The notes under the pieces: generated by a model | Databases searched by the model: none | What the model saw: only the letters and a program-made list of their open reading frames with translations | Told to the model about the DNA's origin: nothing | Shown: positions 37,910 to 47,192 of the stretch, piece by piece | Numbering within the stretch: the first letter of the stretch is position 1 | How the letters are laid out: each line of letters begins with the position of its first letter | Made by a program: the position numbers and the translations under genes | IMG/VR virus record: IMGVR_UViG_3300045988_171564 | Direction: 5' to 3' (one strand) | Length of the DNA: 55,901 bases | Source of the DNA: a virus

Positions 37910-37947
37910 AGAAAATGCCGCTCATACGAGCGACACTAAACTATTGC

Positions 37948-37999
37948 GGGGTTATGGCGAAACGAAACGATTGGGGGTTATGGCGAAACGGAACGACTG
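37948..37999. repeat. 26-bp tandem duplication spanning the 3' end of gene 37952..38353
   Basis: GGGGTTATGGCGAAACGAAACGATTG followed by GGGGTTATGGCGAAACGGAACGACTG, with 2 mismatches. Confidence 0.9.
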
Positions 38000-38353
38000 A
38001 GGCTTATAATCATTGGCATCGCGATCGTAGTGCCACAGCGTCAGATCAACGCCGTAACATGCGCAAGCGTACATGACGGCCGTCGTGCATGGCGTTAGCC
38101 CCGTCACAACAACGTTCAGCGGTTCGCCGACAACTATTGTAGTGTCATCCCAGCCGTTAATGGCGCTGCCGATCGCATTGCGCGGACTACAATGCTCGTA
38201 CACATATTTGTCCGCGATGTGGAGCAGCCTCGCGAAATCGAGAACGTTCTCGATTTCACCATAAATGTATTCATCCACCGGTAGTGGATGCCGTCCGGCG
38301 CACAAACCAACCACGCGCTTCCCGGACGCTATAACATCATTCAAAGTTTGCAT
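37952..38353 (-). CDS. Hypothetical 133-aa protein
   Basis: Alternating beta/alpha pattern (VVGLCAGRH ... LNVVVTGLTPCTTAVMYACACYG). No family recognised. Confidence 0.55.
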   Translation of the reverse strand: MQTLNDVIASGKRVVGLCAGRHPLPVDEYIYGEIENVLDFARLLHIADKYVYEHCSPRNAIGSAINGWDDTTIVVGEPLNVVVTGLTPCTTAVMYACACYGVDLTLWHYDRDANDYKPQSFRFAITPNRFVSP

Positions 38354-38398: not shown

Positions 38399-39238
38399 TT
38401 ATCTCTTGGCCAACATTCTTTTCAGCACTCTCAACCATTGCGGCTTATCCAAGTCGCGTAAATCCTCGCCGCGCCGGAGCGTGCCGCCAACGCGCACATA
38501 TTCGCGTTCCGGTCGGGAACGGCTTGACCTGCCCGCAATCAGCCATTCGACCGCCGCTTGAATTTCTTCCGGCGGTATGCGCGGAACCGTATACCGCGTG
38601 ATGCCGTCCGGATTACGATAGATGCAGCTACCGTAACGCGGCAGGTTTTCCGCGCCCGCAACGCCGATTATGTTGCGGCTGTCCTGCGCGGTCGGGCACC
38701 TGAGCGCAACGCGCGCGTCAATGTTGACAGCGATTTGCCCGTTGATTAAATCGCGCGTCGGGCGCTGGGTTGCGGCGATTACGTGTACGTTCGCCGCGCG
38801 CCCAAGCTGGGTAAGCCGCGCAAGCAGCGGTGTTACCTCCTTTTTGCTGGTAGTCATGAGGTCGGCCAGCTCATCGATAATGACGTATACAGCCGGTTCC
38901 CCGTAAAACTTACGTTCAGCGGGGTTCGAGCGCTCCATCATTATCCTGTAGCGATTATCCATCAGCCTGACCACGCTTTCCAACGTGCGGATAATGTCGT
39001 CCGGCTCCGTTGCGTGCATTGCCGTCTGAGGCAAGCACGCATAGTCAATCAACTCGACCCGCTTGGGGTCGATGAGGTATAGGTTGGGCGCCTTGTGCTC
39101 ATGAAGCGCGCCGAGCAGGTGGTAAATCAGGTTATGCAGCAACACCGATTTGCCCGAGCCGGTTGCGCCTGCTATAAGAAGATGAGGTTGATTAACCATG
39201 TCCATGAAAGGCTTATACCTTGTAAATGACCGCTCCAT
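38399..39238 (-). CDS. FtsK/SpoIIIE-family ATPase (motor domain only, no TM segment)
   Basis: Walker A LLIAGATGSGKSVLL. Walker B VYVIIDELADLM. VHVIAATQRP and ARVALRC motifs. Confidence 0.8.
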   Translation of the reverse strand: MERSFTRYKPFMDMVNQPHLLIAGATGSGKSVLLHNLIYHLLGALHEHKAPNLYLIDPKRVELIDYACLPQTAMHATEPDDIIRTLESVVRLMDNRYRIMMERSNPAERKFYGEPAVYVIIDELADLMTTSKKEVTPLLARLTQLGRAANVHVIAATQRPTRDLINGQIAVNIDARVALRCPTAQDSRNIIGVAGAENLPRYGSCIYRNPDGITRYTVPRIPPEEIQAAVEWLIAGRSSRSRPEREYVRVGGTLRRGEDLRDLDKPQWLRVLKRMLAKR

Positions 39239-39286: not shown

Positions 39287-39976
39287 TTATTCGTAAATTT
39301 CGTCAAAATCGCAAACTTCGTCATCGCCGCCGACGTCGGCATTGCCATAGACTTTAGCACCATTGTAGACCTCGGCGCAACCGTTCACCTCGGCACTGCC
39401 GTAAACTTCGGCACAACCATGTATCGAGGCATTATCATAAATCTCCGCGTCATCGTAAATCTCAGCATCGTCGGAGACTTCTGCTTCTCCGTGCACTTGA
39501 GCGTTGCCATAAACATTGGCGCCGCCGTAGACCTCGGCACTGTCGTACACGCGGGCGTTGTCGTATACCTTAGGCCAATCATATATTCTGGCGTGGCCGT
39601 AAACTTTCGCGGCGCCGTATACATCACCGCCGTGTACATTGGCATCGCCGTATACCTCGGCATTGCCGTAAACGTGGGTGGTTTCGACGTAGGCATTGCC
39701 GTACACGCGGGCATTGTCATAAATGTGGCCGTCCATAATGCAAGCGTTTCCGCCGACTTTGGCATCGTCACATACTATGGTGCCGCCGTAAATTTTAGCA
39801 TCATCGTATACCCAAGCGCTGCCGTCGTCGCTTATATCACCGTCGTACTCGACCCAGCCGCCCACGTCGCCCGCGTGAACGTCACCGAAATCGCGCAGCG
39901 CCTTAACGCGGTATACCGTATATATCTCGTCTACTATCATGGACTCTTCTTTGACCAGCTCATACTTCTTTCCCAT
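39287..39976 (-). CDS. Beta-helix-type hexad-repeat protein, paralog A
   Basis: N-term YELV..YRVKALRDFGDVHAGDVGGWVE, then about 25 six-residue units (xVYGxA: AEVYGD ANVHGG...). The start is set at MGKKYELV by analogy with paralog B. Confidence 0.7.
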   Translation of the reverse strand: MGKKYELVKEESMIVDEIYTVYRVKALRDFGDVHAGDVGGWVEYDGDISDDGSAWVYDDAKIYGGTIVCDDAKVGGNACIMDGHIYDNARVYGNAYVETTHVYGNAEVYGDANVHGGDVYGAAKVYGHARIYDWPKVYDNARVYDSAEVYGGANVYGNAQVHGEAEVSDDAEIYDDAEIYDNASIHGCAEVYGSAEVNGCAEVYNGAKVYGNADVGGDDEVCDFDEIYE

Positions 39977-40046
39977 TTTGTCCTCCATGCGTATATATTA
40001 GCCGGGCTTGTGACCGGCTCGCCGCATTATCGGCCCGTTTGGGCCG

Positions 40047-41015
40047 TCACTCTGCGTAAAGCCTATCCAGCTTTTCACAAAGCGCCTCATGCTGCTGCCA
40101 AGTAATCTTACCGGCCAGCAGCGCGTTACCGATTTTGCCGCCCATATAGCGGCGCTTACGCTCGCTGACGCTGTACCCGCTCCAGCGCGCGGCCCACTTG
40201 ACAGCCGCGCGGCTGCCATCTACCACGTCCCAAAGATTGAGACGCGTTGCGGCCGTGAAAGCGCGTGCGACGGCCATATTGCAGCGCCACATCTCTGCGG
40301 TGTCGCCGTCGCCGTCAACCTCGTCTAAGGCGACGTCGAACGTGCGGCCAGTCGCCGCGATTGTAACCGTGACGCTCCAGCGCGCGCCAAAGTCGCCGCA
40401 GTTCATGTCATCACAGCCGACAATCAAATCGCCGACTGTGGACGTCGCCCACACTGCGCCGCCTGCGGGATTAAAGTACCCGCCGCCGTTATGCGCGTAA
40501 TCAGGGTTAGCAAAATCATTAGTCTCTTCGCCCCAGCAGTTTATTAGCAGGGGCTTCAGTCCGTGCTTTACAGGCTTGTTGATGCTCTTAATTTTCATGT
40601 TATTCTCCTCCACTTTTCTGTTCATTTCGCCGCTTGCTGTTATGCGACGACGGCGCCCCGTCGCACGCGCAAAAAACGTGCGGGTCTCCAAATCGCAAAT
40701 CACATTTTCAGCGTCGTTCAAAAACGTGATGTGCGGGTATATTACGCGGCGGTATCCCATCGCCACAATCAGACCGCGCGGGCCTAACCACTGTACGTCA
40801 TCGTACAGTTTGGTTTGCACGGCCTCTTCACGCTCCATAACGTCGCGAGCCTTGCGGCATTCTGCCGCGCACGCAAACGCATACTTGCGCTTGCGTGTGC
40901 GCTGATACATGTTGTAATACGCCTGCGCGGTTACTACCGCGCGGCGGATTACGAGTACGTCGCGTTCGTACATGGCGCGTACTTCCTGAGCAACCTTTTT
41001 AATGTTCTTATCCAT
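40047..41015 (-). CDS. Hypothetical protein (322 aa; an internal SD plus ATG at 40597 could give a shorter product)
   Basis: ATG 41015 follows GGAGGG. GGAGGAG precedes the internal MKIKSINK. No motif recognised. Confidence 0.5.
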   Translation of the reverse strand: MDKNIKKVAQEVRAMYERDVLVIRRAVVTAQAYYNMYQRTRKRKYAFACAAECRKARDVMEREEAVQTKLYDDVQWLGPRGLIVAMGYRRVIYPHITFLNDAENVICDLETRTFFARATGRRRRITASGEMNRKVEENNMKIKSINKPVKHGLKPLLINCWGEETNDFANPDYAHNGGGYFNPAGGAVWATSTVGDLIVGCDDMNCGDFGARWSVTVTIAATGRTFDVALDEVDGDGDTAEMWRCNMAVARAFTAATRLNLWDVVDGSRAAVKWAARWSGYSVSERKRRYMGGKIGNALLAGKITWQQHEALCEKLDRLYAE

Positions 41016-41049
41016 TTTTCCCTCCAATTACTCCAATGTTCGGCATTTA

Positions 41050-41313: not shown

Positions 41314-41958
41314 TCACGGCTGTTCTCCTTGCGCGTGCTCAGCGATGTTCGCGCTGCCGTATACTTCAGCGAACTCATGCACCTCGGCGTTGCCGTATAC
41401 GCGGGCGTTGCCGTATACGGCCGCGCACCCGTGTATAGTGGCGTTGCCGTAAACCTCAGCACCGTCGTATACGCAGGCGCTGCCGTATACGCGGGCACCG
41501 TCGTATACGCAGGCGTTGCCTTCCACCTCGGTGTATTCATGCACCTCGGCGTTGCCGTAAACCTCAGCATTGCCGTATACGCAGGCGCTGCCGTATACGC
41601 GGGCACCGTCGTATACGCAGGCGTTGCCGTATACTTCAGCGAACTCATGCACCTCGGCGTTGCCGTAAACCTCAGCATCGCCGTATACGCAGGCGTTGCC
41701 GTATACGCGGGCGCTGCCGTATACGCAAGCACCGTCGTATACGCGGGCGTTGCCGTATACGCAAGCACCGTCGTATACGCGGGCGTTGCCGTATACCCAG
41801 GCGCTGCCGTCCTGGCTAAGGCAGGTATCATCTTCAATCCACCCGCCCACGTCGCCCGCGTGAACGTCGCCAAAATCACGCAAGGCCTTGACTCTGTAAA
41901 AAGTATGGCCGATGGTATGCGCGTTGTTCGCATCGACCAACTCATATTTTCTTGGCAT
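41314..41958 (-). CDS. Beta-helix-type hexad-repeat protein, paralog B
   Basis: MPRKYELV..FYRVKALRDFGDVHAGDVGGWIE, then about 27 hexads (ARVYDG ACVYGN ...). The DNA shows an 18-bp periodicity. Confidence 0.7.
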   Translation of the reverse strand: MPRKYELVDANNAHTIGHTFYRVKALRDFGDVHAGDVGGWIEDDTCLSQDGSAWVYGNARVYDGACVYGNARVYDGACVYGSARVYGNACVYGDAEVYGNAEVHEFAEVYGNACVYDGARVYGSACVYGNAEVYGNAEVHEYTEVEGNACVYDGARVYGSACVYDGAEVYGNATIHGCAAVYGNARVYGNAEVHEFAEVYGSANIAEHAQGEQP

Positions 41959-41983
41959 AAATGATATACCTCCATGCGGTAAT

Positions 41984-42060
41984 TCGGTTTCCCGTGACGC
42001 GGCGGCGTATTGCCGCCGCGTTTCGGCCTGTTACCGGCAGGCCATCATCAGACGGGCCAA
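41984..42060 (-). ncRNA. Hammerhead ribozyme (type I topology), copy 1
   Basis: Minus strand reads UUGGCCCGU-CUGAUGA-U-GGCCUG(CCGGUAA)CAGGCC-GAA-ACGCGGCGGC(AAUAC)GCCGCCGCGU-C|ACGGG-AAA-CCGA. The full conserved core and three stems are present. Confidence 0.8.
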
Positions 42061-42704
42061 GGGCGCAGACCCAGCGCATAAGCCGCGCCGGCTCCGCAGG
42101 CGGCAACGTCCAGCCTGCCGCAATCGCAGACCTCGGCACTGCTGTCCGCATCTTGCTGCTCCCACTCTAGCAGCTCGTCGCGGTTCAGGTCTACAAGCTC
42201 CCAGTCCTGCCACGCGTCCGCGTCCGCGTGGAGTTCCAGCAGCGCGTTTAGGAGCTGGCCCTCGGGCGATTGCTCCCAGCCCGCGACTACTGCGACTGGC
42301 GTGCCAGCACAGTCGCAGATGTACAGGCGGACAAACCCGCCGTTGTCCTCGTATACCCTATATCGGGTATCGGATGTAAGCATACCGGCGTCCTCAGCCA
42401 GCAGGGCAACCCTACCGGCGGCGGCGTCCATAAGCTCGTCAACGTAGTCGTAGTCGTCGGGGTCAAGTCCTGCCGCCTCGGCGATTTTGTCGTAGGCATC
42501 CGGCTCCAGGCAATCCCACGCGGGCGCGGCGTCTGCGACCCTGTAGAGGTCGTAGGCGCTGAGGCGTTCAAGCCCCTCAAAAGTTCCGTCGCGGTCATGC
42601 GTGTCGCGCGCTGTCTGATCCAGCGCGTCGCCGTCCTTTATGTGACGCCAGGTATCGGCGTCGATGGTAGCTAGCTTGGTAGAGTCGATGTAGTAGCTTG
42701 CCAT
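42048..42704 (-). CDS. Strongly acidic 218-aa protein (DNA-mimic / antirestriction candidate)
   Basis: Asp/Glu-rich throughout (DPDDYDYVDELMD, ELLEWEQQDADSS). Its stop codon UGA lies inside the hammerhead CUGAUGA core. Confidence 0.55.
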   Translation of the reverse strand: MASYYIDSTKLATIDADTWRHIKDGDALDQTARDTHDRDGTFEGLERLSAYDLYRVADAAPAWDCLEPDAYDKIAEAAGLDPDDYDYVDELMDAAAGRVALLAEDAGMLTSDTRYRVYEDNGGFVRLYICDCAGTPVAVVAGWEQSPEGQLLNALLELHADADAWQDWELVDLNRDELLEWEQQDADSSAEVCDCGRLDVAACGAGAAYALGLRPWPV

Positions 42705-42764
42705 TTTTTTGTACCTCCTTTTTTTCCCCTCTTAATTCATCCGCGCGCCGTATGGCGCGCTATG

Positions 42765-43274
42765 TTATACCGTGGCCATCGCGCCGCTGTGGGCGCTGTA
42801 CATCTGGCTACCATACTTAGCGCGTATGGTAGCCATGTCAACCTGACGACGGCTATATGCGCCGCCGTCGTCAGCCGCGTGCCAGTACCACGCCTTTTTA
42901 GTGCCGCTCCAGCGGCACCCCAGCGCTTTTAGTGCGGCGCGGTGCTGGTATGTGTCGCCGGTTATCCATAGCCAGCGGCCACACAATTCAATTTCCAGCC
43001 CCGCCAGTTTGAGCAGGGCCAGAAGCGTGTCTCGCCAGGCGGTCGCCTCATATGCGCTTGCGGCGGCGTCATACTCGCGCGCGCCCGAACTCGCCGCGCG
43101 GTGCTCTGTGCGCGCTATACGCGCGACGGCTTCATCGTAGGCGTTGTTGAGCGCCTTCATGGCGGCCTCACTGCCGCCGGGGCAGTCAGGATGACACTTG
43201 ACTGCCAAGCGGCGATATGCCTTTTTGAGGTCGTCCATCGTCTTGATGGGCGCGAATATTGCGTTAAAGTTCAT
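42765..43274 (-). CDS. J-domain (DnaJ-like) protein with an uncharacterised C-terminal domain
   Basis: LKKAYRRLAVKCHPDCPGGSEAAMKALNNAYDEA carries the HPD motif. C-term CGRWLWITGDTYQHRAALKALGCRWSGTKKAWYWH. Confidence 0.75.
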   Translation of the reverse strand: MNFNAIFAPIKTMDDLKKAYRRLAVKCHPDCPGGSEAAMKALNNAYDEAVARIARTEHRAASSGAREYDAAASAYEATAWRDTLLALLKLAGLEIELCGRWLWITGDTYQHRAALKALGCRWSGTKKAWYWHAADDGGAYSRRQVDMATIRAKYGSQMYSAHSGAMATV

Positions 43275-43293
43275 GCTCTTTATATACCCCTGT

Positions 43294-43378
43294 GATAATA
43301 TTCGGTTTCCCGTGACGCTCCGTGCTGGAGCGTTTCGGCGCGTGACCAGCGCGCCATCGTCAGACGGGCGATATAATC
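43294..43378 (-). ncRNA. Hammerhead ribozyme (type I topology), copy 2
   Basis: Minus strand reads ..UCGCCCGU-CUGACGA-U-GGCGCG(CUGGUCA)CGCGCC-GAA-ACGCUCC(AGCAC)GGAGCGU-C|ACGGG-AAA-CCGAAUAUUAUC. Stems II and III differ from copy 1 but remain paired. Confidence 0.8.
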
Positions 43379-43409
43379 AGCGCGTAAAAGCCATTTCGAC
43401 CGCCCCGCT

Positions 43410-43745
43410 CTAAGCAATTTTAATGCCGTGCAAGGCGCATGTGAGCATGATTTGCTCTTGCATTGCAAACCCGCAATGCAGATTCGGGCAGATGGACTCT
43501 ATTAAGTCCAACACGCCCGGCTCTTTTGACGGGTAGGCGCTCATGCGCAAACCGTCGGCGGCAAGTAACACTTGCTCAATCCCGGCCGCGTATGCCTTGA
43601 TTTTGGCCTCGTTGGCCTGCATCAATTCGTGCAGGCCGTTCGAACCGCAAACATTGTTGCTTGCAAAAGCTTCATCCACGACTGCCGCCTTTGCAATATA
43701 CTTCGACAGCCCTTTTATGGTTTTGAATTTTACTTTTGCTTTCAT
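43410..43745 (-). CDS. Hypothetical 111-aa protein (first gene of the minus-strand module)
   Basis: SD AGGAGGGAAAAG precedes ATG 43745. Confidence 0.55.
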   Translation of the reverse strand: MKAKVKFKTIKGLSKYIAKAAVVDEAFASNNVCGSNGLHELMQANEAKIKAYAAGIEQVLLAADGLRMSAYPSKEPGVLDLIESICPNLHCGFAMQEQIMLTCALHGIKIA

Positions 43746-43909: not shown

Positions 43910-43938
43910 ATTATACCACATTTGCATGATTATGTCAA
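43910..43938 (-). promoter_or_regulatory. Consensus sigma-70-type promoter of the minus-strand module
   Basis: Minus strand reads TTGACA (43938-43933), 17-nt spacer, TATAAT (43915-43910). The leader to ATG 43745 is about 155 nt. Confidence 0.7.
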
Positions 43939-44340: not shown

Positions 44341-44369
44341 TTGACATTACCACACACACATGATATAAT
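44341..44369 (+). promoter_or_regulatory. Consensus promoter for the HTH and recombinase genes
   Basis: TTGACA (44341-44346), 17-nt spacer, TATAAT (44364-44369). Confidence 0.7.
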
Positions 44370-45419: not shown

Positions 45420-45455
45420 ACTGAATAGTTAACGTCTGCATAAACGGGTGCAGAT

Positions 45456-45511
45456 AAGAGCCGATTGGGGCTTTGCTTTTATAAGCATTGCTTTGATCGG
45501 CTCTTTTTTTG
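45456..45511 (+). terminator. Rho-independent terminator
   Basis: AAGAGCCGAT...ATCGGCTCTT followed by TTTTTT. A second hairpin TCTGCA..TGCAGA lies just upstream. Confidence 0.65.
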
Positions 45512-45533: not shown

Positions 45534-47192
45534 ATGGACTATGAGCGACTTGTGAGCCGCATATTTGACGTAATCCAGGAAAAGCCGCTGGATGCGGGCG
45601 CATATGAGGACGTGCTGAATGTCTGCAAGGATATGAAAAAAAACGGCCTTTTAGGAAGGGCGCACGAGATTAATACCCAGATGCGCAATATCATTGTGCG
45701 CAACACAATCGGCGCAAAAAATGAGCTGTTTAAGCCGTATAAATCGAGCCTGCTGTTTGATGCTGACGTATCGCTGGACGCATACATGCTGTACCTTGAG
45801 ATAGAGCGCCCGCCTGCCGAAAGGTTTTATCAGCCGCGCCGCCGCGTACTGCTGGACGCGGTGCAGATGATGCAGGATTTGGCCGACGGCAAGTTGAACG
45901 AGGCGTTTATAAGCTGTCCGCCGCGAGTTGGCAAGACTACGCTGCTTATGTTCTTGACCACATGGTTGTTGGGGCGCAACAGTGAACAGGCTAATTTGTA
46001 TTCGGCCTACTCGGACGTTATCACGAATGCGTTTTATCAAGGCGTGCTGGAGATAATCACTGACCCGCATACATACCTTTGGAGCGACGTATTCCCGAAC
46101 AGTAAGATTGTGCAGACCAACGCCTCAAGCGAGACGATAAACCTTGACCGTAAAAAGCGTTACCCGTCGCTGACCTGCCGGTCACTGTACGGCACGCTGA
46201 ACGGCGCGTGCGATTGCAGCGGCTTTCTGATTTCGGACGACCTTATAGGCGGCATCGAGGAGGCCTTGAGCCACGACCGCATGATGAGTGCGTGGCTCAA
46301 GGTGGACAATAACCTGATAACCCGCGCAAAGAGCGATGCGCGCATACTCTGGTGCGGTACAAGATGGTCGATGATTGACCCAGCAGGGCTAAGGATGGAG
46401 CTGCTGACCAACGATAAGCGTTTCAAAAAGCGCAAGTACAAAATAATCAACATGCCCGCGCTTGATGACAAGGGCAACAGCAACTTCAATTACGACTACA
46501 ACGTCGGGTTCAGCACGGAGTACTACATGCAAAGGCGCGCGTCGTTCGAGCGAAACGGCGATATAGCGTCGTGGAACGCCCAGTACATGGGACAGCCGGT
46601 AGAACGCGACGGCACGCTGTTCGAGCCTGAAAACATGCGCTTTTTCAACGGCTCTTTGCCTGGCGGCGACCCTGACCGCGCATTTATGGCCGTTGACCCG
46701 GCATACGGCGGTTCCGACTTTGTAGCAAGCCCGGTATGCTACCAGTACGGCGAAGACGTATACGTTGTTGACGTGGTTTATAGTTCCAGCGATAAGCGGA
46801 CTACACAGCCACTGCTTGCAGCCGTAGCCCAGAAATACGGCATACAGCGAATGCAAATCGAAGCCAATAAGACCACGGAGGCGTTCAAGGACGGCGTTGA
46901 GGAAGAACTCAAAAAGCGCGGCTATCACGTTACGCTGACCACCAAACCCGCGCCGCCCATCACATCGAAGGAAAACCGCATACGAGATCGCGCGCCGGAT
47001 ATACGCATTCACTTTCTGTTTCTGGAAGATGGACAGCGTTCAAAGGCATATAGTTTGTTTATGCAAAACGTGTATTCGTTTAAGCTTATAGGCAAGAACA
47101 AACACGACGACGCGCCCGATTCGCTGGCAATGGCCGCAGACATGGCGTTTGGCATACAGCGGCGCGTCGCAATATTCCGGCGCATGTTCTGA
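45534..47192 (+). CDS. terL: Terminase large subunit
   Basis: Walker A-like ISCPPRVGKTTLLMF. ATPase plus nuclease-sized 552-aa ORF directly upstream of the portal gene. Confidence 0.8.
   Translation: MDYERLVSRIFDVIQEKPLDAGAYEDVLNVCKDMKKNGLLGRAHEINTQMRNIIVRNTIGAKNELFKPYKSSLLFDADVSLDAYMLYLEIERPPAERFYQPRRRVLLDAVQMMQDLADGKLNEAFISCPPRVGKTTLLMFLTTWLLGRNSEQANLYSAYSDVITNAFYQGVLEIITDPHTYLWSDVFPNSKIVQTNASSETINLDRKKRYPSLTCRSLYGTLNGACDCSGFLISDDLIGGIEEALSHDRMMSAWLKVDNNLITRAKSDARILWCGTRWSMIDPAGLRMELLTNDKRFKKRKYKIINMPALDDKGNSNFNYDYNVGFSTEYYMQRRASFERNGDIASWNAQYMGQPVERDGTLFEPENMRFFNGSLPGGDPDRAFMAVDPAYGGSDFVASPVCYQYGEDVYVVDVVYSSSDKRTTQPLLAAVAQKYGIQRMQIEANKTTEAFKDGVEEELKKRGYHVTLTTKPAPPITSKENRIRDRAPDIRIHFLFLEDGQRSKAYSLFMQNVYSFKLIGKNKHDDAPDSLAMAADMAFGIQRRVAIFRRMF

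Follow-up and report, generated by a model that had tools for sequence, protein, structure and literature searches.

HH2, an RNA element encoded on the minus strand of a phage genome (IMG/VR virus record IMGVR_UViG_3300045988_171564), is very probably a functional type I hammerhead ribozyme that would cleave itself and probably process the polycistronic mRNA of a phage operon. The complete element, including the 3' strand of a pseudoknot, lies at 43303..43368 (-) of the window, by which we mean the whole analyzed stretch of 55,901 nucleotides, and was delimited by sequence, minimum free energy (MFE) fold, a family model and covariation. Our analysis demonstrates the motif and the family to which it belongs, as well as covariation, a predicted pseudoknot that covaries and the setting within an operon. 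HH2 is a member of a subfamily that occurs commonly in the phages and prophages of Oscillospiraceae and related gut Clostridia. This subfamily is marked by a stem I of 5 bp, one additional U between A9 and G10.1, a loop II of 7 nt with the consensus YNGGUNA and a pseudoknot of 3-4 bp, in which loop II pairs with ACC(G) located two bases after stem I. The pseudoknot would hold stems I and II side by side.

The RNA quoted in the preliminary description of this site is the exact reverse complement of window positions 43294..43378. Its parts, all on the minus strand, begin with the 5' strand of stem I and the core, continue with the hairpins of stem II and stem III, which are separated by GAA, and end with C17 and the 3' strand of stem I. 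Stem I is formed by CCCGU (43368-43364) and ACGGG (43313-43309). The sequence CUGACGA at 43363-43357 provides the 5' core from C3 to A9 and is followed by the extra U at 43356. Sequence and MFE fold agree on a stem II of 6 bp, GGCGCG/CGCGCC (43355-43350 / 43342-43337), which carries the 7-nt loop II CUGGUCA (43349-43343) in accordance with the family consensus. The core bases G12, A13 and A14 (GAA, 43336-43334) lead into the 7-bp stem III ACGCUCC/GGAGCGU (43333-43327 / 43321-43315) with the loop AGCAC, closed by the pair A15.1-U16.1 (A43333-U43315). According to hammerhead numbering C17 (43314) is the cleavage-site base; the predicted cleavage site is therefore located between 43314 and 43313 (43313..43314), and the 3' product would start from A43313. 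The pairs adjacent to the core are G43355-C43337 (10.1-11.1) and U43364-A43313 (1.1-2.1).

The MFE fold of minimal RNAs of 63 nt and 69 nt was exactly this three-way junction. Stem I is an open helix and loops close both stem II and stem III; this is the type I topology. The 5' core, the 3' core, the A15.1-U16.1 pair together with H17 and the three helices are all present, and a contact of stem I with stem II is provided by the predicted pseudoknot, which is backed by covariation. The sequences show that the fold is under clear selection, and every defining sequence and structural feature of an active hammerhead can be recognized.

A sister hammerhead, HH1, is located in the same orientation at 41985..42056 (-), with C17 at 41996. 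The distance of 1318 nt between the two C17 residues agrees with the previously noted 1.3 kb, and the stem II GGCCUG/CAGGCC and the 10-bp stem III of HH1 were also found as reported. The same applies to the leaders: cleavage would leave 39 nt before ATG 43274 in the case of HH2 and 37 nt before ATG 41958 in the case of HH1. The stop codon (42048-42050) of the upstream open reading frame (ORF) 42048..42704 is the first UGA within the CUGAUGA of HH1.

As Rfam gave no hammerhead call, the case for a hammerhead was built independently. A generic type I descriptor (exact core, stems of at least 4, 3 and 4 bp) found two sites in the window, HH1 and HH2, and none in 200 dinucleotide shuffles; the pattern used in the preliminary description gave two matches in the window and none in 100 shuffles. 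The covariance model R1 was constructed from alignment A2, which comprises 49 distinct relatives and from which both window copies were left out. Run with the filters off over the whole 55.9 kb, R1 scored HH2 with 83.5 bits (43298..43372; E about 2e-20) and HH1 with 78.3 bits. The third-best score in the window was 9.1 bits, which means that the window contains exactly two copies.

For the collection of relatives, a pattern with both halves of the motif was used, which matched in 34 viral contigs. An additional pattern, CGTCTGANGATG..GGTNA..CGAAAC, covers only the 5' half and is silent on stem III, the cleavage site and the 3' strand of stem I. It revealed 27 viral loci and 14 reference-genome loci, and the complete 3' half (stem III hairpin, GUC, AYGGG, then RRACC) was present in all of these loci but four. 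The four exceptions, L043 and a coding region common to L046-48, lack a paired stem II and were rejected as hammerheads. The genome matches are metagenome-assembled genomes (MAGs) of Oscillospiraceae, Oscillibacter, Ruminococcaceae, Butyricicoccus, Faecousia and other Clostridia, and the sequence comparison suggests that the window probably derives from a phage of this group of gut Oscillospiraceae-type Clostridia. Among the GenBank phages no close relative of the region from 41 to 45 kb was found; the matches had only 5-10% coverage at 66-69% identity. Applied to all loci, R1 gave 111 matches, 72 of them distinct (alignment A3), and separated family members at 33-87 bits from a window background of 9 bits or less.

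Within the 72 distinct sequences the core was almost invariant: U4, G5, A6, G8, A9, G12 and A14 were found in 72/72, as was the A15.1-U16.1 pair, and C3 and A13 in 71/72 each. Position N7 is free to vary (C 31, U 36, A 5). At H17, 66 sequences have C, 4 have A and 1 has U, and the lone G belongs to the false positive L043. Perreault et al. worked with the same core as their hammerhead consensus (PMC3088659). At least one copy, L042:1802-1877 (+), reads GGAA for GAAA, corresponding to the exchange A13G in the core, and is otherwise intact.

In contrast to the core the helices change in sequence and remain paired. Standard pairs were found in 94.3% of the helix cells of A3, compared with 25-44% if the 3' partners were slid by 1-3 columns, and 258 cells showed double changes, compared with 64 +/- 6.5 in shuffles, with the caveat that A3 was fitted to the model and that part of the set was picked by a pairing descriptor. 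The set collected with the 5'-half pattern is unbiased for the 3' half and showed, judged by eye, the same pairing behavior, and an alignment made with MAFFT only gave the same covariation picture. All three stems covary: stem I was paired in 98.9% with double changes in 4/5 pairs, stem II in 96.7% with double changes in 5/6 pairs, and stem III in 96.8% with double changes in 5/6 pairs. The G-U pairs on the minus strand correspond to C-A mismatches on the other strand, which indicates that the structure exists at the RNA level.

The closest comparison is possible with locus L060 (metagenome contig ERZ1034962 NODE-274), which encodes a J-domain protein 82% identical to the one encoded downstream of HH2. 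One hammerhead (74.9 bits with R1) is located directly upstream of this gene. Its stem II, GGCCUG/CAGGCC, and its 10-bp stem III are both unlike those of HH2 and both fully paired. The claim of a second real hammerhead with compensatory stem changes, which had been derived from the two window copies, is thus supported by the 72 distinct relatives as well as by an orthologous locus; stem-disrupting changes, which would have argued against it, did not appear in this homologous region.

Covariation extends to the contact of stem I with stem II. Stem I is followed, after two bases, by ACC, and the GGU in loop II is its complement. For HH2 the predicted pseudoknot consists of U43348·G43303, G43347-C43304, G43346-C43305 and U43345-A43306, that is, loop II bases U43348, G43347, G43346 and U43345 with the 3' strand ACCG (43303-43306); in HH1 the first pair is C-G. 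The three core pairs of the pseudoknot were paired in 92% of the cells, compared with 15-62% after sliding, and 13 cells showed double changes, compared with 2.0 +/- 1.3 in the shuffled controls. The fourth pair is found in under half of the sequences. Exchanges of loop II and flank that keep the pairing were GAC:GUC (L037:5948, L002:6996), GGC:GCC (L026:8538, L002:10501), AGC:GCU and AGCU:AGCU (L002:7972, L041:3072), UGU:ACA (L005), GAU:AUC (L002:5674) and GAAA:UUUC (L002:6308). Pseudoknots between stems I and II have been reported for about 40% of hammerheads, in all three types, and are required for fast cleavage (PMC3088659).

This result also changes the interpretation of the 3' flank ACGGGAAACCGAAU. 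The flank is conserved between the two copies, as described before. It is not an outer part of stem I; it comprises stem I and the 3' strand of the loop II pseudoknot, which explains its conservation. An outer extension of stem I can indeed be drawn for both copies; it is, however, not a feature of the family, since only 26% of the cells pair, the same as in shuffles, and it would compete with the pseudoknot. We therefore rejected it.

The base after A9 is U in 53 sequences, absent in 16 and G in 3 (n=72), so that this position is optional within one family. A base inserted after A9 can be tolerated, as summarized in PMC3705267 (citing De la Pena and Flores 2001) for the (+) hammerhead of chrysanthemum chlorotic mottle viroid (CChMVd), where U was the most active variant and 3-4 fold faster than the natural A.

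HH2 is located between ORF 43410..43745 and the J-domain gene, as stated previously, and forms part of a unit of about 6 kb on the minus strand. The unit starts with a sigma-70-type promoter at 43910..43938 (TTGACA-17-TATAAT, 12/12, extended -10 TG; pattern match only), and HH2 lies in sense direction 540 nt downstream of it. The first ORF, g1 (43410..43745), encodes 111 aa without family assignment. Directly downstream of HH2 follows the gene of the J-domain protein (42765..43274; 169 aa; PF00226 with 28.8 bits at a cut-off of 27.8; phrog_15863 with E 9e-44), and then g3 (42048..42704; 218 aa, no family), which precedes HH1 and has a 79%-identical orthologue in L060. HH1 is followed by YdcK1 (41314..41958), a YdcK-type beta-solenoid gene (PF18836 with E 2.5e-19; phrog_7964, phrog_5070), and by g5 (40047-41027). 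The stop codon of g5 is overlapped by a twister-P5 ribozyme (40002..40056), which scored 60.4 bits with RF02684 (gathering score 37.6) and is the sole Rfam match at gathering score in the window. Downstream of it are the paralogous YdcK-type gene YdcK2 (39287..39976), a gene for an FtsK/SpoIIIE-type ATPase (38399-39238) and an ORF of 133 aa (37952-38353). A terminator-like hairpin at 37914..37937 with a 10-bp stem and a T run (pattern match only) is the probable end of the unit, and no terminator-like site was called on the minus strand between the promoter and 37937. For YdcK2 the true start is probably ATG 39976, judging from a GGAGG 5 nt upstream and from the PHROG profiles, which begin at residue 5 of the longer ORF. 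Outside this unit the window also contains terminase-type, portal-size and other phage-type ORFs.

Thus HH2, HH1 and twister-P5 are found within 3.4 kb on one strand, and the arrangement of several sense-strand ribozymes within a few kb between operon genes corresponds to the ribozyme clusters of phages and prophages. The leader motif CGCAUGGAGG is common to both YdcK paralogues, but the ribozyme class that precedes them differs (HH1 and twister). It has been remarked that the RNA motif's exact nature is apparently unimportant at such sites (PMC6765202), and the YdcK pair is a small clear instance.

A transcript of about 6 kb starting from the promoter at 43938-43910 would allow the following course of events. 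The ribozyme would fold during synthesis and cut after C43314. Nearly all of the ribozyme would stay on the upstream fragment and form its compact, GC-rich 3' terminus, which would carry a 2',3'-cyclic phosphate, and the downstream fragment would start with 5'-OH ACGGGAAACC..., 39 nt before the start codon of the J-domain gene. Together, HH2, HH1 and twister-P5 would produce four pieces (g1; J and g3; YdcK1 and g5; YdcK2, the FtsK-like gene and beyond), and stability and translation would then be separable for each RNA piece. A role in mRNA processing, 5' ends, stability and translation has been the standard hypothesis since 2011 (PMC3088659, PMC6765202). For tandem hammerheads of prophages, cleavage has been observed both in vitro and in E. 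coli (PMC3088659).

Several points weigh against this interpretation. For HH2 itself, cleavage, its co-transcriptional timing and an effect on the fate of the mRNA are what we infer from the observations above. In the case of an uncleaved RNA of 133 nt, which includes 70 nt of added downstream sequence, the MFE prediction prefers a fold without hammerhead, in which CGCGCCCAUC at 43254-43245 (-), located in codons 8-10 of the J gene, takes up the 5' strand of stem II. This competing fold is unlikely to matter much if the RNA folds co-transcriptionally, as assumed in the model, but with slow folding it could compete. A further point concerns the 5'-OH end: from work on the glmS ribozyme, such an end is said to be a possible target of RNase J1 in Firmicutes instead of a protection. 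The direction of the effect on the J-domain mRNA is therefore uncertain. The copy with the A13G exchange in L042 is probably inactivated, as judged from its core, so that not every copy need be active. For phage hammerheads in general, the consequence of cleavage is not established for any example (PMC6765202).

The last of these points is the result with Rfam. None of the hammerhead models (RF00163, RF00008, RF02275, RF02276, RF02277) reached gathering score in the window, and the best score of the hammerhead clan at E<=10, determined with pieces of 131-141 nt, was a partial match to Hammerhead_II with 11.2 bits (gathering score 37). Likewise, no Rfam model reached gathering score on HH2, HH1 or more than 40 copies in 15 related loci. 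We attribute this miss to incomplete coverage by the models and not to a lack of any class-defining structure, and do not count it against the ribozyme. Its likely causes are that stem I is short, that a U is inserted and that a pseudoknot takes the place of a loop-loop contact.

The sequence CGCGCCCAUC is nearly complementary to GAUGGCGCG (43350..43358, -), which comprises part of the core and the 5' strand of stem II; the match could be due to chance or represent a folding competitor. A comparison of the leader folds before and after cleavage indicated no convincing switch in the accessibility of the Shine-Dalgarno sequence, and the z-scores were modest.

The position of the ribozymes relative to their neighbors was analyzed across the family. 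The stop codon of the upstream ORF is usually located 0-5 nt before stem I or within CUGA. The leader between the cut and a start codon bearing a Shine-Dalgarno sequence has a median of 44 nt (interquartile range 38-47), and 45/50 leaders are within 28-63 nt. The leader of twister-P5 would have about 52 nt to ATG 39976, counted from what we take to be the twister cleavage site. About 25 nt are already taken up by stem I and the pseudoknot strand together with the Shine-Dalgarno sequence and its spacer, and the distribution looks like tight packing against this lower bound and not like a measured distance. The fixed distance between ribozyme and start codon, which had been suggested from the similar leaders of HH1 and HH2, could not be upheld, as the range given above and the leaders of the orthologous J genes (27 nt in L060, 39 nt in the window) demonstrate.

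A role for specific cistrons, which had also been proposed, does not fit the diversity of the downstream genes. Neighbors within the family include ArdC-N anti-restriction genes (two loci), FtsK-like, primase, HNH and RusA genes and several domains of unknown function (DUFs). A dedicated link to the J-domain gene was rejected, since at the distant J-domain homologues (28-38% identity; L056-59, L061-69) neither a hammerhead nor any other Rfam ribozyme was found. Larger relatives of the phrog_15863 type in L042, L045, L051 and L053 do follow a hammerhead. The number of hammerheads per locus is often 2-6. In Oscillospiraceae-type MAG contigs, L042 and L045 contain 2-4 hammerheads each and L053 contains one; the same three loci show seven twister-sister and two RAGATH-5 matches at gathering score.

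At some of the loci with distant J-domain homologues (L056, L061, L062 and L064) all of them viral or metagenomic contigs, we observed one or two matches to the S-adenosylmethionine (SAM) riboswitch aptamer per locus (RF00162; 54.6-57.3 bits, gathering score 44.4). They are located on the strand opposite to the J-domain gene, and no ribozyme was found there.

A comparison of gene orders addresses the question of which neighbor the ribozyme accompanies. L060 (1768..3004), the closest relative that was found, was compared with window positions 41980..43372; the order is g3-HH-J in L060 and g1-HH2-J-g3-HH1-YdcK1 in the window. The ribozyme of L060 resembles HH1 and runs on from the 3' end of g3 without a break, and the homology between L060 and the g3-HH1 segment of the window stops right after ACGGGAAACC, directly behind the pseudoknot strand of the hammerhead. 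L060 also contains a twister-P5 (Rfam) before its YdcK gene. In this locus the hammerhead seems to travel with the upstream gene, but this reading fails across the family. Among the non-identical context pairs, which are not independent of each other, the upstream gene alone is shared in 37, the downstream gene alone in 64 and both genes in 9; the mean identity of the hammerheads was 0.77, 0.83 and 0.96, respectively, with a background of 0.72. Across the family the ribozyme thus tends, as far as these comparisons indicate, to accompany the downstream gene, with L060 showing the opposite, and we regard this only as a lead.

The 41 nt between the g1 stop codon and HH2 (43369..43409, -) show a weak alignment (A5) with the 3' coding end of g3. 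HH2 may have arrived with a remnant of the end of a g3-like gene, although the similarity is too weak for certainty.

The higher similarity of the downstream-only pairs than of the upstream-only pairs gives a hint that the ribozymes could be the 5' boundary of mobile expression modules (ribozyme, leader and gene) exchanged between phages of gut Clostridia. If so, cleavage would free an incoming gene from the RNA context of the recipient operon; the upstream message would then have a structured 3' end capped by a cyclic phosphate, and the leader left on the downstream message would be minimal, with a 5'-OH and roughly the size of a ribosome footprint. The non-independence of the pairs and the opposite linkage in L060 count against this idea, and we consider it rather unlikely at present.

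The context data have also to be weighed with respect to a real hammerhead that is mainly a selfish or neutral passenger spreading between phage gene cassettes, or a patch of homology for recombination. Homology is one-sided in 101/110 hammerhead context pairs with a homologous neighbor, the gene orders of L060 and the window differ with homology ending at the pseudoknot strand, the neighboring genes are diverse and the L042 copy is probably dead, all of which would be expected from a passenger. However, a crude synteny control gave no sign that hammerheads are hotspots of synteny breaks: both sides were conserved in 0.33 of the hammerhead junction pairs and in 0.29 of the others, with small numbers (29 hammerhead junctions captured by the gene caller), and we do not postulate a recombination hotspot. 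Moreover, the invariant catalytic bases together with compensatory stems and pseudoknot argue for selection on an active fold and not on DNA homology, and the presence of different ribozyme classes in equivalent places, as HH1 and twister before the YdcK paralogues, points to a need for cleavage itself (PMC6765202). A mere passenger is accordingly improbable.

HH2 and HH1 could also bracket the J and g3 RNA of 1.3 kb, the ends of which would be joined by an RtcB-type ligase or by the reverse reaction to a circular or spliced mRNA. The same orientation and the spacing of the two copies would permit this, and RtcB joins exactly 5'-OH and 2',3'-cyclic phosphate ends. The possibility was raised by Perreault et al., who searched for circular or spliced products of tandem prophage hammerheads and found none (PMC3088659). 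Since many loci of the family contain a single copy or irregularly spaced copies, and nothing in the sequence brings both ends together, we regard this scenario as very unlikely. Still less credible is a structured RNA that acts without self-cleavage as a protein-binding site, RNase entry site or transcription attenuator. Two GC-rich hairpins between genes would suit such a function, and the cleavage of HH2 is a prediction; but no T run follows the hairpins, no terminator-like site was called there, and the unpaired bases C3-A9, G12-A14 and H17, which are needed for catalysis only, are invariant in the 72 sequences while the helices change. A chance resemblance to the hammerhead motif, for which only the missing Rfam call at HH2 speaks, is negligible in view of the 200 shuffles without a descriptor match, the E value of about 2e-20 with the family model and dozens of homologues with covariation.

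HH2 can be compared with several known systems. The clusters described by Perreault et al. 2011 in prophages and phages (PMC3088659) share with the present family the canonical core, the clustering around varying genes or blocks and a Watson-Crick pseudoknot linking stems I and II, and polycistronic processing was proposed for them as well. An anti-restriction gene is found as neighbor in both cases, ArdA there and ArdC-N here in two loci of the family. The hosts differ, being gut Oscillospiraceae-type Clostridia in our case. The subfamily sequence was not found in the text of the supplements of Perreault 2011 (the figures were outside this search), and we could not assign the locus or its subfamily consensus to any published alignment. 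Clustered phage hammerheads were also reported by De la Pena and Garcia-Robles 2010 and Jimenez et al. 2011, as summarized in PMC6155905. Rfam Hammerhead_1 (RF00163, clan CL00010) has the same class, core and three-way junction, but the models miss HH2 and HH1.

The CChMVd (+) hammerhead resembles the subfamily in one extra base at the same position of the core (PMC3705267). It differs in being a type III hammerhead of a circular RNA replicon with a natural A, whereas the family described here is of type I, encoded in DNA and has U in the majority of sequences (53/72). Twister, twister-sister and RAGATH ribozymes (Roth 2014 and Weinberg 2015, as summarized in PMC6765202) occupy equivalent intergenic positions in the same operons, but neither their folds nor their catalytic cores are related to those of the hammerhead. 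The glmS ribozyme likewise cuts itself within the leader of a bacterial mRNA and thereby alters the fate of the message; among bacterial examples it is the only one whose role is known (PMC6765202). In contrast to glmS, which needs a metabolite cofactor and is always found ahead of one specific gene, the family shows no hint of a ligand and its neighbors vary.

Type I hammerheads of phages and bacteria, prophage clusters (2011), pseudoknots between stems I and II, an extra base after A9 and co-occurrence with twister are already described (PMC3088659, PMC6155905, PMC6765202, PMC3705267, bioRxiv 10.1101/2024.05.16.594327). Worth keeping from our analysis are the clean definition of the subfamily and the blindness of Rfam to it. 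In the loci examined the curated models miss about 70 distinct sequences, which means that routine annotation of gut phages under-counts hammerheads. Why phages and bacteria set fast self-cleaving ribozymes between genes is a long-standing question (PMC6155905, PMC6765202), and the operon of the window offers a compact setting in which to address it, since a single promoter is combined with three ribozymes belonging to two classes and with a pair of paralogues that each come after a different class.

Some minor observations concern the surroundings of the ribozyme operons. A second sigma-70-type promoter (12/12, extended -10 TG) at 44341..44369 (+) faces away from the promoter at 43910..43938 (-), and on sequence grounds the pair looks like a divergent control region between the ribozyme operon and genes of the plus strand. 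At 45431..45478 (+), just upstream of an ORF of 552 aa (45534..47192), there is a near-threshold match to the gut-2 RNA motif (RF02990; 36.1 bits, gathering score 39.8, E 7.6e-5), the second hairpin of which (45457-45474) is also terminator-like. In two other loci of the family arrays of five tRNA genes adjoin the hammerhead clusters, at L049 2455..2996 (+) and at L054 5277..6148 (-).

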